Shown: positions 15,983 to 21,406 of the stretch, piece after piece
Position numbering within the stretch: the first letter of the stretch is position 1
Layout of the letters: every line of letters starts with the position of its first letter
Assembly: GCA_000002435.2 (NCBI GenBank)
Contig: CM018793.1
Length of the DNA: 64,000 bases
Origin: Giardia intestinalis
Lineage: Eukaryota
Strand: one strand, 5' to 3'
Program-made: the position numbers and the translations under genes
The notes under the pieces: generated by a model
The model's input: only the letters and a program-made list of their open reading frames with translations
Told to the model about the DNA's origin: nothing
Databases searched by the model: none

Positions 15983-17707
15983 CTACGCCTTGCCCCGGCA
16001 GATGAACCACCAGCAGAGGAAGCCCACAAGGCCAGCCACGACGACAACCGCCGCGACGGAGATCCCCGCGATGGCCCCCGTGGAGAGCCCGCTCCTGTTG
16101 GCGCCAGAGGACACACAGGAGGTCCCACTGCTGTCTAGACTGAAGCCACTGTTGCACTCTTCACACACACCGTCCATCACACAGCTCTTGCAACCACCCA
16201 CAGAGCACAGCACACACCCGCTGCCGTCCTTGTTGGGCTTCTTACTACTGTCACAAGAGGTACACACAGCGGGGGTCATACCAGCCCCAGTCAAAGGTGT
16301 CGGGGCTGTACACTGAGAGCAGCCATCCACTCCCACATATGCCTTAGCAGTATCACCAGTGCCTGTTGATGTGCCTAGGGGGTTACCACATGCCAATACA
16401 GACTGATCAGTAGCCTTTGCTTCTGGGACTATGAAGTACCTATTGTTGGCCGCCTCTGTGCATATCCCACTACTATCTGCTTTCTTGCACATATGACTAC
16501 CTGGTACTTGACCAACCTTATAACAGCCATTCATGTACAAGAAGTATCCTGTAGTACACTGTGTACATGTATGACTGGCACAAGTATTAGCTCCTTTACC
16601 AGTATCAGTACATATACCATCAATTGGTACCTTACTGTTATCCCCACAGTATGAGCAATAGTGCTTTGTGTTGCCATTCTCGTCAATTATTATAGCATCG
16701 CAGGCTCCAGATGTCCCCCCGCAGGCAGTCTCATCCTCACAGGTCTTGGTACATGTAACAGGACTGGTACCACTCTGCTTGTAGTTCACCTTACAGGAGT
16801 TGCAGGTCAACGAGTTAGAGAAGGTGCACGTTGCACAACCAGGCACTCCATCTGTTGGGTTATCACAAGAGACACATGTGCCAGGACCACTGCCTTTCAT
16901 GAAGAATCCAGGCTTGCATGTATCACACTTATCATTGCCAGCAGCAGAGCATGTAGCACAATTATCACCACAGGCTGCGCATGTAGCGGTACCAAAGTAC
17001 CCCTCTAAGCATCCACTACAGGTTGGATTGCTATTTCCTGTCTTGGTACAGGTCTTGCAGCCAGGAACACCTGTATTACCGCTAGCCTTGTCGCTATCAT
17101 CGCCACAGGGGATACACTTAGTATTTCCCTCACTTAAAAAGTGCGTATTGCCACTTGCACACTCTCCCTCCGCAACGCACGTCGTCGTCCCGTCTGCCGC
17201 CGTCTTCACCATCTTGCTACTGCTGCAGGTCCTACATTGCGGCTTGCCAATAGTTGCATTGTACTCACAGGTGGCACAGTCAGCTATTCCACATGCCTTA
17301 CATTGGCCTGTTGTCGGGTCTGCATAGTTACCAGCACCGCATCCACTAGCCTCTACACAAGTGTTATCACCCTTCAGGTACTTCCCCTCAACGCATGCCG
17401 AGCATTGATTTTGATTACTCTCTGAGCAGGCAGAGCAGCCCTCTCCGCACTTCTTACACGTATTAGAAACGCTATCCTTAACGTACCCAGCCTTGCACTC
17501 AGTACACGTGGCAGGTCCTGGACTACTAGCTGGCGCCGTGCACTTGAGGCAGTTGGCCACTCCTTTGTTCTCATTCGCTCCCTTGATATCATGACAGAGT
17601 ATGCACTCGCTACCCTTCTCTGATGGTGCAGCCGGGTTCTTGAACAGGCCGTTATCTGCCTTACAAGTAGTGCATACTCCATTACTGGCTGCTGTGCAGA
17701 TATCACT
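15983..17707 (-). pseudogene. VSP (variant-specific surface protein), 5'-truncated tandem copy 1, no ATG or signal peptide
   Basis: Ends in GLVGFLCWWFICRGKA*, has a TM segment and CXXC-rich body. The track ORF 15983..17560 starts at a GTG. The frame is open 49 codons further upstream (WSDICTAASNGVCTTCKADNGLFKNP...) to a TAG inside the GTGATAG repeat of copy 2's 3' region. AGTAAAC polyadenylation signal downstream of the stop. Confidence 0.7.
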
Positions 17708-17760
17708 CCACTATCACCCTCTATCACACACTATCACCCATTATCACCCTCTATCACCCA
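17700..17760. repeat. GTGATAG-family 9-10-nt microsatellite in a VSP 3' region (minus-strand sense GGGTGATAG)
   Basis: Plus-strand ctatcaccc / ctatcacac units x6 between the copy-2 stop and the copy-1 junction. Equivalent blocks at 19522-19570, 21321-21380 and 62248-62300. The units carry TGA/TAG stops in two of the three frames, and the 9/10-nt spacing shifts frames along the block. Confidence 0.8.
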
Positions 17761-17786
17761 CTGTACAGCATTCACTACCTAAGTAC

Positions 17787-19532
17787 CTACGCCTTCCCCC
17801 TGCACACGAACCACCAGCAGAGGAAGCCGACGAGGCCCCCCACAACAACGACCACAGCGACGGAGATCCCCGCGATGGCCCCCGTGGAGAGCCCGCCCCT
17901 GTTGGCGCCAGAGGACACACACTTACCATTGTCTAGACTGAAGCCACTGTTGCACTCCCCACACACATCATCCACCACACAGCTCTTACAATCACCCACA
18001 GAGCATGTCACACACCCAGTGCCGTCCTTGTTGGGCTTCTTATCACTGTCACAGGAGGTGCATATAGCAGCAGTCATGCCAGCCTCAGTCAGAGCTGTTG
18101 GGGCTGTACACTGTGAACAGCCATCCACCCCCACGTATGCCTTCTGACCAGCCAGCTCGACCCCAAGGGGGTTCCCACAGGAGAGGACAGACTGCTTGTC
18201 CTTGGTGGGCGAGGGAGGGATGAAGTACCCGGCTGCCGCCTCTGTGCAGACACCCTCGCCTGCCTTTGTGCACATGTGACTACCGGGGGCATTGGTGGTA
18301 CTATAGCAACCACCCATGTATAGGAAGTACCCTTGAGCACAATAGCTGCAAATGTGATCAGTACACCCAGCATTTGTTCCTTTGCTATCAGTGCATATAC
18401 CATCAATAGGGAACTTACCACTATCCCCACAGTAGGAACAATAATGCTTTGTGTTGCCCTTATCATCTATTACTATAGCATCACAGGCGCCAGAAGTACC
18501 CCCACAAGCCGTTGTATCCTCGCAGGTCTTCACACACGTTGTTCCCTGTAACTTGTAGCCGATCTTGCAGCGGTTGCAGCTGGCCGGGCCCGGGGCGGCT
18601 GGGGCTGTGCAAGAGAGGCATCCTGCAAGCCCGCTGTAGCCACTATCATTACCATTCTCGCACGAGATGCACTTTCCTTCGCCGGTGCCGGCCAGGAAGA
18701 ACCCCTCCTTGCACGTTTTACATTTAGTCTCATCTGTTTTAGCTGAACATGTGACACAGTTGGCCCCACAAGCCTCACAAGTGTTTGATGACTGTTCAAA
18801 GAAGTATCCATCGAGGCAAGCTGTGCAAGTTGGAGGGGAGCCATCTGCACTCTTAGTGCATGTCTTACACCCTTCTTTGCCTTTATTGTTATTATCCACG
18901 TCTTTAGTATCTCCGCATAATAAGCACGCCGATTGGTCCTCCTTCATGAACAGCTCGTTATCAGCTCCTTGACACCCAGCATAAGAATTTTCCACACAGG
19001 TCGAGGTTCCGTCGAGGGTTGTCCTGGGAATCTTATTTGAATTACAAGTCAGACACTTGCCCTTTGCCGTTGCACTATCAAATGAGCATGTTGCACAGTT
19101 GGCATCGAGGACAGTACAGGCAACGCAGGTCATGCTAGTGTCATCGGGGTAGTGATCGTTGTTACACGTACCTTTGTCTACACACTGGTTCTCTTTCAGG
19201 TACTTCCCTGTCTCGCACGATGTGCACTGATTTTGATTGGCTCCACTGCATGTAGCACAGTCGCTGTGGCATGCAGCACACTCTGTATCACTCTTCTTAT
19301 ACGTTCCAGCCATGCACTCGGTGCACGTGGCCGCTCCTGTATTGCCACCAGGTGCCGTGCACTTGAGACAGTTGGCCACCCCCTTGTTCTCATTCGCTCC
19401 TGTAGCATCGGAGCACAGGATGCACTCCCCACCAGGAGTCACCCTCTCTGCCTTGTTCTGGAATATGTACTGACTATTTGTATTACACTCAGTGCACACT
19501 CCACTACTGGCTGCTGTGCATATCACACTCCA
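17787..19532 (-). pseudogene. VSP, 5'-truncated tandem copy 2, no ATG or signal peptide
   Basis: 579+ aa ending in CRGKA*. The track's leading M is a GTG two codons after TAG-TGG-AGT (..*WSVICTAASSGVCTEC). The C-terminal ~150 aa are identical to copy 3. Confidence 0.7.
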
Positions 19533-19596
19533 CTATCACCCTCTATCACCTTCTATCACCCTATCACACATTGTACAGCATTCACTACCTAAGTAC

Positions 19597-21330
19597 CTAC
19601 GCCTTCCCCCTGCACACGAACCACCAGCAGAGGAAGCCGACGAGGCCCCCCACAACAACGACCACAGCGACGGAGATCCCCGCGACGGCCCCCGTGGAGA
19701 GCCCGCTCCTGTTGGTGCCAGAGGACACACACTTACCATTGTCTAGACTGAAGCCACTGTTGCACTCCCCACACACATCATCCACCACACAGCTCTTACA
19801 ATCACCCACAGAGCATGTCACACACCCAGTGCCGTCCTTGTTGGGCTTCTTATCACTGTCACAGGAGGTGCATATAGCAGCAGTCATGCCAGCCTCAGTC
19901 AGAGCTGTTGGGGCTGTACACTGTGAACAGCCATCCACCCCCACGTATGCCTTCTGACCAGCCAGCTCGACCCCAAGGGGGTTCCCACAGGAGAGGACAG
20001 ACTGCTTGTCCTTGGTGGGCGAGGGAGGGATGAAGTACCCGGCTGCCGCCTCTGTGCAGACACCCTCGCCTGCCTTTGTGCACATGGACTTACCCGGCTG
20101 AGCTGATATACTATAGCAACCACCCATGTACATAAAGTACCCCGTAGTACAAGACTCACAGACATGGTTGTCACAAGTATTGCCTTGCTTATCAGTAGCA
20201 CATAGTCCATCTATAGGATACTTATCATTATCTCCACAATAAGAACAGTAGTGAAGCTCCTTCCCTGTACTATCTATTATCATGGCATCACAGGCGCCAG
20301 AGGTACCACCACAAGCAGTGTCATCCTCACAGGTCTTCACACATGTATAGTCATTCCCTGCATCTCCATTGGGCTGCTTCCTATAGTTTGGCTTACAGTC
20401 AGTGCACTTGAATGTGCCACTGTTAGAGCATGCACTGCACCCTTCGCGACCCTTATTGTCCACACTGTCGCATGAGACACACTCACCAGGTGCTTGGCCT
20501 CCTTTCAGGAAGTATCCCGGCTTGCAGGTTTGGCACTGGTTAGCATTAGCGCTGTTGCAGGTGGCACAGTTGGTCCCACAGGGCTTGCAGGTGGTATCAA
20601 AGTAGAATCCAGGGAGGCATGCTGAGCAGATTGGAGGCTGTGCCAGGTCGGTTTTCTTACACCCACTGCACTCAGCAATTCCCTCGTCAGGGGCGGTTCC
20701 TCCGGTAGCGCTGCATAGTATGCAACTGTTCTCATCCTGGCTTAGGAAGTGTGTTCCCACTGTGTTTAGCGCTGCACATCCCGCCTTATCCACGCACTCT
20801 GTTGATCCATCGACATACCCTTTAAGGAGAGGCTTGGCTCCCCCACAGGTGCTGCACACCGGCTTCTGTAACTGATCGTTGTATGCACATGCGGTGCACC
20901 CAGTTATCTCACTGCACGCCTTGCACTCCCCGGACTGTTTGTCTGCGTACTTACCAGCACCACATTGACCAGCCTCTACGCAAGTGTTAGTATCAGTCTT
21001 CAGGAACTTCCCGGCCTTACAAGAGGTGCACGCATTCGGACCGGCTCCACTACACGTCTCGCAGTCGGTATGACATTTGGTACATGCGCCACCATCGTTG
21101 TAGTACCCATCTTGACACTCTGTGCACGTGGCTGCCCCCTTATTATTAGTTGGTGCTGTACATGTAGCGCAGCCCTCGACTCCCATATATCCATCTGCTC
21201 CCGTGGCATCATGACAGAGTATGCACTCGCTACCCTTCTCTGATGGTGCAGCCGGGTTCTTGAACAGGCCGTTATCTGCCTTACAAGTAGTGCATACTCC
21301 ATTACTGGCTGCTGTGCAGATATCACTCCA
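19597..21330 (-). pseudogene. VSP, 5'-truncated tandem copy 3 (internal ATG at 21186 but no signal peptide)
   Basis: 529-aa track ORF (MGVEGCATCTAP...) ending in CRGKA*. The frame is open 48 codons upstream (WSDICTAASNGVCTTCKADNGLFKNPAAPSEKGSECILCHDATGADGY) back to a TAG that follows the complete VSP's 3' region. The N-terminal block is identical to locus-2 sequence at ~60520-60770. Confidence 0.7.
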
Positions 21331-21406
21331 CTATCACCCTCTATCACACACTATCACCCATTATCACCCTCTATCACCCACTGTACAGCATTCACTACCT
21401 AAGTAC

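Follow-up and report, generated by a model that had tools for sequence, protein, structure and literature searches.

Short spacers built on a decamer repeat separate the head-to-tail copies of two arrays of genes for variant-specific surface proteins (VSPs) in a 64,000-nt stretch of the Giardia lamblia WB (ATCC 50803) genome, hereafter the window. We regard these spacers as probably the inherited boundary of one amplified cassette, the unit of the known VSP linear arrays of promoter-less, 5'-truncated pseudo-VSPs. The four spacers of the window share a single layout, in which a stop codon is followed by the polyadenylation (poly(A)) signal GTACTTAGGTAGTGAATGC, by about 10 nt of intervening sequence, by a block of GTGATAGNNG units and by re-entry into the next copy at the residues S-(D/V)-I-C. 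The initial annotation of this DNA had described the same succession of poly(A) signal, GTGATAG block and re-entry, and we find it at all four joints of the window (minus strand, 17700-21380; plus strand, 62228).

Anatomy of the spacers

Counted from the stop codon to the S codon, the spacers measure 79, 67, 79 and 65 nt, and the range of roughly 70-140 nt proposed earlier is thus corrected. Their positions are as follows.

17708-17786, minus strand: spacer J1, 79 nt, with the poly(A) signal at 17768-17784 and a decamer block of 5 units at 17708-17757
19530-19596, minus strand: spacer J2, 67 nt, with the poly(A) signal and a decamer block of 4 units, one of them of 8 nt, at 19530-19567
21328-21406, minus strand: spacer J3, 79 nt, with ACTTAGGTAGTGAATGC at 21388-21404 and a decamer block at 21328-21377, identical to J1
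62228-62292, plus strand: spacer J4, 65 nt, with the poly(A) signal at 62230-62246 and a degenerate decamer block at 62255-62292

The GTACTTAGGTAGTGAATGC of the spacers fits the published extended poly(A) signal of VSPs, ACUUAGRUAGURAAYRY. Each joint reads TAG-GTACTTAGGTAGTGAATGCT..., then GTGATAG units, then AGT-G(AT/TG)-AT(C/A)-TGC, which encodes S-D/V-I-C, and the stretch of about 10 nt between the poly(A) signal and the block is TGTACAGTGG, TGTACAATGT or TATGAGTG. Decamers are present in all four spacers, and the expectation that the spacers would share a repeat unit when compared with one another is borne out. The repeat units had been put at 4-7 per spacer and 9-10 nt each; the units are real, and there are 4-5 per block with a period chiefly of 10 nt and sometimes of 8, 11 or 13 nt. 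Tandem Repeats Finder reports period-10 arrays at 17701-17762, 19533-19562, 21321-21382 and 62256-62282. GTGATAG occurs 25 times in the window (7.8 expected; 0 of 100 shuffles reach 25), and 14 of these occurrences fall within the four spacer blocks, which are free of C (0 of 50, 0 of 38 and 0 of 38 nt). The terminal pseudo-unit of the block is the coding sequence GTGATAT(C)TGC of the next copy, so the last unit does double as that copy's first codons, as had been described. An Rfam scan of 15500-23500 returned no match.

The four spacers cannot be counted as four independent examples, as they had been at first. Both J1 and J3 belong to an exact 256-nt duplicate (17588-17843 = 21208-21463), in which the spacer is accompanied by 57 nt from the upstream gene and 114 nt from the copy that follows, and the number of independent spacer variants in the window is therefore three. 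The reading frames, too, need a different description from the one given initially, in which each unit carried stops in two of the three frames. TGA and TAG are adjacent codons in the same frame (TGATAG), such that one unit shuts one frame; the shifting of frames by the period does stand, and with a period of 10 nt the stops move from frame to frame, so that none of the three forward frames stays open in any window spacer. The poly(A)-signal region by itself shuts two of the three.

Junctions on other contigs

In addition to the four junctions of the window, we read seven on three Giardia contigs (L001-L003) from independent metagenome samples, and all seven carry the same poly(A) signal and decamers as the window spacers. 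The order of unit variants is partly kept across junctions (e.g., GTGATAGAGG-GTGATAATGG-GTGATAG(A/T)..G), and as far as sequence comparison can tell this common order points to one copied founder junction, not to repeated events at a hotspot. When decomposed into units, J1, J2, J4 and the junction L001_a differ from one another by whole units. Taking exactly one 13-nt unit out of J2 gives the junctions of L002 and L003, a relation that agrees with the earlier proposal that differences in repeat number arise by slippage.

What follows the block is less constant. In L001_a the block is succeeded by LLFIGGCYKTESQPG, 66 nt of extra VSP coding sequence upstream of the S-D-I-C point. This continuation, ATGGGACTTCTCTTCATAGGAGGATGCTACAAGACAGAGAGTCAGCCCGGC, encodes G-L-L-F-I-G-G-C-Y-K-T-E-S-Q-P-G, collinear with full-length genes, and then S-E-I-C; when exactly 66 nt are taken out of L001_a, the junction becomes collinear with J4. 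L002 and L003 read ...GTGATAGAGG|GTGATATGCAC, with the block running directly into GTGATA|TGCAC. A second junction on L001, L001_b, has a single decamer and GTGCTATGTGGTGTGGGAGG and then a stub of 70 residues, whose re-entry at V-G-G-C-K-S-C is close to the C-terminus.

Proteins of the first WB annotation extend this picture. P0003, P0014 and P0031 begin MLYSDSDS(DS)AMWCGGDS..(L/F)FMGGCY, in which MLYS back-translates to the ATGCTGTACAGT of the spacer (MLYS = aATGCTGTACAGT); we infer that these open reading frames (ORFs) would begin at an ATG inside the poly(A) signal and cross a GATAGT-type block into the VSP. Re-entry at LLFMGGCY is found in P0003, P0014 and P0031 and also in the WB protein P0006. 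A fixed re-entry codon, as claimed in the initial annotation, thus holds within the window, where all copies enter at S-D/V-I-C, and fails outside it, where LLFMGGCY, GTGATA|TGCAC and VGGCKSC provide just the differing re-entry points that had been named as evidence against it. The constant element is the poly(A) signal plus the GATAG-core repeat, and the re-entry point varies. A protein search with the junction-spanning peptide of P0003 gave no candidates, and a scan of JGI metagenomes for the VSP 3' end pattern gave 0 matches.

Members of the arrays

The window contains two VSP linear arrays. The minus-strand array (22744→15983) consists of four head-to-tail copies, VC, VB, VA and V0, and the plus-strand array, from about 60190 to the window end, of at least two, VD and VE. 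All six copies match PF03302 (VSP) at 62-258 bits, above the cut-off of 31.4. The ORF at 19597-21186 (minus strand), internal to VB, is 100% identical to XP_001704185.1, annotated "VSP", and the remaining strong matches are all to Giardia variant-specific surface proteins.

21407..22744, minus strand: VC, complete head gene; PF03302 at 258 bits; CRGKA and stop
19597..21327, minus strand: VB, 5'-truncated pseudo-VSP of 576 codons plus stop, beginning S-D-I-C; PF03302
17787..19529, minus strand: VA, 5'-truncated pseudo-VSP of 580 codons plus stop, beginning S-V-I-C; PF03302
15983..17707, minus strand: V0, 5'-truncated pseudo-VSP that closes the array, with 574 codons plus stop; PF03302
60190..62227 (start approximate), plus strand: VD, head of the plus-strand array, a pseudogene; PF03302
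62293..64000, plus strand: VE, 5'-truncated pseudo-VSP beginning S-V-I-C and continuing past the window end; PF03302

A signal peptide together with a PyAATGTT initiator (Inr) at the start codon, which we used to recognize a functional gene, is found in VC alone and fails to appear in the five other copies. The ATG of VC lies within the Inr TAATGTT at 22740-22746, and its signal peptide is MLIGFLLVCATVLA. VB, VA, V0 and VE have neither start codon nor signal peptide and open at S-D/V-I-C-T-A-A-S behind in-frame stops. In the full-length relatives P0033, P0015, P0025 and P0009, the S-D-I-C point lies about 105 residues in, just past ...CGDGYFLFMGGCYKTTDGPG; these N-terminal residues end ...FLFMGGCYKTTDGPGSEICTAASNGVC, and the window copies begin at SDICTAAS. 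VD retains the N-terminal region ...CGDGYLLFMGGCYKTESQPGSDIC that is missing from the truncated copies. It is without an ATG, reading ACAGCCTCTCTA (ACAGCC) where relatives read ACAATGTTTCAA (ACAATG; MFQ...), and its N-terminal region (60190-60530, plus strand) is spread over three frames by two frameshifts before 60520. A start-less TTAFLLIPLF form resembling VD also occurs in L004 (around 9960-10000). Because V0, VA, VB and VE start at S-D/V-I-C after stops, and because VD combines a missing ATG with frameshifts, we class all five as pseudo-VSPs. Adjacent head-to-tail copies, spacers of 65-79 nt, a head gene (VC) with an Inr and downstream members without one together make up a linear array, and PyAATGTT is absent in or near every window spacer.

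At their 3' ends the copies are uniform with one exception. Five CRGKA-stop ends are present in the window, four of which precede another VSP copy, and the published extended poly(A) signal ACTTAGRTAGTRAAYRY follows CRGKA in the form ACTTAGGTAGTGAATGC at four of the five and as ACTTAGATAGTAAACGC at the end of V0. This last end (15940-15990, minus strand) is unlike those of the internal copies in having FICRGKA, the poly(A) signal ACTTAGATAGTAAACGC (AGTAAAC) and a unique flank, and it seems to be the 3' end that the locus had originally. At the other extremity of the array, immediately behind the signal peptide of VC (22281-22672, minus strand), a 111-nt (37-aa) unit is repeated 3.5 times in tandem with 96% identity; VSPs of this tandem-repeat class are known.

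Exchange between copies

Outside tracts of exact identity, the copies are 30-70% identical in pairwise comparison. The exact tracts shared by array members lie in coding and 3' conserved sequence and extend over 57-391 nt. VB is a mosaic, with nt 0-113 equal to V0, nt 93-240 equal to VD and nt 1235-1604 equal to VA, and VD and VE have 391 exact nt in common. The match of VB to VD is exact over 148 nt (21081-21228, minus strand, and 60623-60770, plus strand), the remainder being about 60% identical. Judged by its sequence, this tract indicates exchange between two divergently oriented arrays that lie about 40 kb apart. Moreover, VC, although unrelated in its ectodomain, matches VA-J1 exactly over its final 57 nt, the poly(A) signal and all of the spacer, which suggests that arrays may have been attached to, and swapped between, VSP genes via the conserved 3' end.

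These tracts bear on the proposal of the initial annotation that the microsatellite is the substrate for the crossovers that built the arrays, a proposal that does not survive them well. The identity tract shared by J1 and J3 (256 nt) passes through the decamer block intact, and the exact tracts of 57-391 nt are far better substrates for unequal exchange than 10-nt units. The near-identity tract of VA and VB (17762-18276) reaches as far as the first decamer; all copies, however, are identical over the ~80 nt leading up to that point, which leaves the breakpoint without an exact position. None of the 11 junctions has an A-run between the poly(A) signal and the block, where a processed or retroposed copy would have a poly(A) tract.

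VSP genes without the block

No decamer block was found after the terminal copy V0 or upstream of VC, and the full-length genes in L004, L006 and VD have none either within them or upstream. In assemblages A-like, B and E, the 3' flanks of some 10 VSPs that are solitary or terminal have the poly(A) signal in common and then diverge, with no block. Some solitary flanks are C-poor and GT-rich, and we considered whether the block might be homologous to them; local alignment scores did not rise above those of composition-preserving shuffles (40 tests, most with p > 0.05, the best 0.007), and this origin was rejected. In L006, the assemblage E protein P0023 (P15; 1395-1700) is the downstream part of a full-length VSP (MLLIAFLFVSNTLA...) broken by a frameshift and is no array member.

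Head-to-tail junctions of assemblage B (L010 at 4248, L009, and L008 at 8310) have very different spacers without decamers. At two of them (L010, 4248-4480; L009, 460-700), about 200 nt past the poly(A) signal resemble frameshifted VSP (…MVCTVYV…LCGAMGVLEDAEG…HTGE…CSACQ), and three-frame translation places a possible re-entry near an NGVCT motif, which may lie within a few codons of the assemblage A point. Alignment of the assemblage B spacer DNA to assemblage A junctions and full-length genes gave only short, weak matches. Many assemblage B VSP models begin VNDPAGVSIDSLCRP, in which V-N is GTGAAC; a decayed CRGKA-stop-poly(A) signal before these VNDPAGVSIDSLCRP pseudo-VSPs was looked for and rejected, the alignment to a real VSP 3' end being non-significant (z 0.5-1.1). 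Two of these models, in L005 (2900-3030) and L008 (6230-6330), share a conserved non-coding upstream stretch ending ...CCAGGGGGTGAGTGAACGATCC.

Origin of the spacers

The cassette reading builds on features observed directly: the anatomy of the spacers, their shared unit order, the collinearity across the 66-nt indel, the mosaic exact tracts and the absence of the block at solitary VSPs. In the order of events that we would reconstruct, a founder head-to-tail junction joined sequence just beyond a poly(A) signal to an internal point near ...CGDGY/LLFMGGCY. The resulting unit would comprise the decamer block, a VSP body minus its first ~105 codons (signal peptide and first Cys module), the transmembrane segment, CRGKA and stop, and the extended poly(A) signal with about 10 nt beyond it. 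This unit would then have multiplied and spread to further VSP loci via homologous exchange in long conserved tracts, especially the 3' end, with gene conversion continuing to homogenize patches. The C-free GTGATAGNNG block would be a neutral microsatellite that gains and loses units, presumably by replication slippage, and the stop codons in it are a side effect of the TGATAG core.

Deletions beside the block would have produced the different re-entry points. From the sequences compared, the S-D-I-C type of the window is most simply a deletion derivative, a 66-nt deletion having taken out LLFMGGCYKTESQPG and so created the re-entry of the window copies; its putative endpoints are, on the block side, GTGG and, on the coding side, the similar-looking GG(C)AGTGAnATATGC.

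Several points weigh against this account. The four window junctions and seven others that were read stand against roughly 200 pseudo-VSPs in the WB genome, and it is by parsimony that the 66-nt difference is read as a deletion and not as an insertion or conversion. Neutrality of the block is an assumption; a complete lack of C over 38-50 nt, kept across junctions, could reflect constraint. The VA/VB near-identity tract ends where the decamers start, as a breakpoint in the repeat would look. Finally, the account names no source for the decamer itself. The codons for CGDGY (GGCGACGGGT) were tried as a source and rejected: the two are alike by eye and in protein (AMWCGGDSGGVG vs ATCGKCGDGY), with poor identity in the MAFFT register and no statistical support.

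An alternative that we think unlikely is that the GTGATAG microsatellite is the substrate or direct by-product of the unequal crossovers that built the arrays, with joints forming at the block repeatedly. The block is placed exactly at every joint of this array type, deletions of differing extent are anchored at or beside it (the LLFMGGCY, SDIC, GTGATA|TGCAC and VGGCKSC re-entries), its last unit resembles a copy's first codons through GTGATA microhomology, and the VA/VB identity tract halts at the first decamer. Units of 1.8 kb can nevertheless exchange without 10-mers, given the exact tracts of 57-391 nt elsewhere in them; the J1/J3 tract goes right across the block, the common unit-variant order and flanks indicate one founder junction, and assemblage B arrays exist without any such repeat.

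Less probable still is a derivation of the block from a VSP initiator, now decayed, and the codons that begin the signal peptide, CAATGTTG(TTG)ATAG (CAATGT[T]G..TGATAG), lying at the predicted cleavage site of the preceding copy. Under this scenario the silent arrays would go back to units as long as a transcript, linked from 3' end to transcription start through a process that was RNA-mediated or coupled to transcription; the first signal-peptide codons would have expanded into the decamer repeat, and deletion of the N-terminal region would have come afterwards. Four junction variants (J2, L001_a, L002 and L003) do read aCAATGTGTGATAG, genuine VSP starts read cTAATGTTGATAGG (VC) and aCAATGTTGTTGATAGC (L006), and the junction sequence CAATGTGTGATAG resembles the start (C/T)AATGTTGATAG; PyAATGTT is reported to be nearly exclusive to VSP genes, and the block starts about where cleavage is expected, 13-15 nt past the hexamer (PMC9014877). 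The match is short and was spotted after the fact, however, and other junctions have CAGTGG, TATAGTGT or ATGAGTGAT at that position. The joint lacks a poly(A) tract, none of the downstream array members compared keeps a signal peptide, and downstream members are without an Inr according to Adam et al. (PMC2996952).

A function of the block for the upstream gene, whether as a G/U-rich downstream element or terminator in 3'-end formation or as a selected three-frame stop barrier insulating silent copies, the latter having been proposed in the initial annotation, is very improbable: the block is G+T-rich, C-free and directly downstream of the predicted cleavage site, the three frames are shut in the window spacers and certain solitary VSP flanks are likewise C-poor and GT-rich, but complete solitary VSPs manage without it, the similarity to solitary flanks does not exceed composition, GU-rich downstream elements are not enriched in Giardia (PMC9014877), clear CstF/CFIm factors are lacking there (PMC9014877; PMC11529991), and a barrier has no obvious job behind the stop codon and poly(A) site that the upstream gene already possesses, the more so as the array ORFs of P0003, P0014 and P0031 appear to run open through the block.

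Comparison with known systems

The locus type is already known. According to Adam et al. (2010; PMC2996952), more than half of the vsp genes belong to linear arrays, whose spacers have a mean length of 60 bp and range from overlap to 241 bp; the first array member has an Inr and a long non-coding upstream region, and downstream members, without an Inr, are proposed to be silent recombination cassettes. Array members without start codons have since been re-annotated as pseudo-VSPs, by Xu et al. (2020; PMC7000408) and by Rodriguez-Walker et al. (2022; bioRxiv 10.1101/2022.03.07.483299), and in the latter source the extended poly(A) signal, ACUUAGRUAGURAAYRY, is described as confined to VSPs and pseudo-VSPs. 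The arrays of the window are like these vsp linear arrays of the same genome in their head-to-tail order, short spacers, Inr-bearing first gene and start-less followers, and also in the CRGKA and extended poly(A) signal of each copy and in the evidence of recombination between members. The accessible text of PMC2996952, PMC7000408 and bioRxiv 10.1101/2022.03.07.483299 is silent on the GTGATAGNNG block, on variation in its copy number and on alternative re-entry points, and a literature search for GTGATAG in Giardia found nothing on VSP array spacers among the titles listed. Set against these sources, as far as they were available, the decamer repeat and the alternative re-entry points are the only new detail.

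VSP arrays make up a large share of the Giardia antigen gene family and are suspected reservoirs for new surface antigens. A recognizable junction, composed of the extended poly(A) signal and a C-free GATAG-core repeat, offers a simple marker of array units and their spread, and the mosaic exact tracts are direct evidence of exchange among array members, including exchange between two arrays 40 kb apart. The repeat itself appears to contribute little, with no sign of function in this analysis.

Repeats at the boundaries of antigen cassettes are familiar from other organisms, among them the 70-bp repeats upstream of VSG in Trypanosoma brucei, the 17-bp direct repeats of Borrelia vls and the CRJE of Pneumocystis MSG. 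The Giardia arrays resemble these systems in having promoter-less, 5'-incomplete copies arranged head to tail, with a short repeat before each copy and a conserved 3' end after it. The VSG 70-bp, vls 17-bp and MSG CRJE elements also occur at the expression site and fix the boundary of conversion; the Giardia block, unlike them, is found neither upstream of complete VSPs (VC, L006) nor within full-length genes. Antigen switching in Giardia is regarded as epigenetic and not recombinational (PMC2996952). In its short tandem units, whole-unit differences between paralogues and degenerate variants, the block behaves like an ordinary microsatellite or minisatellite under slippage; unlike an ordinary microsatellite, it occupies a fixed place in a 1.8-kb higher-order repeat, and its last unit is also coding sequence of the next copy.

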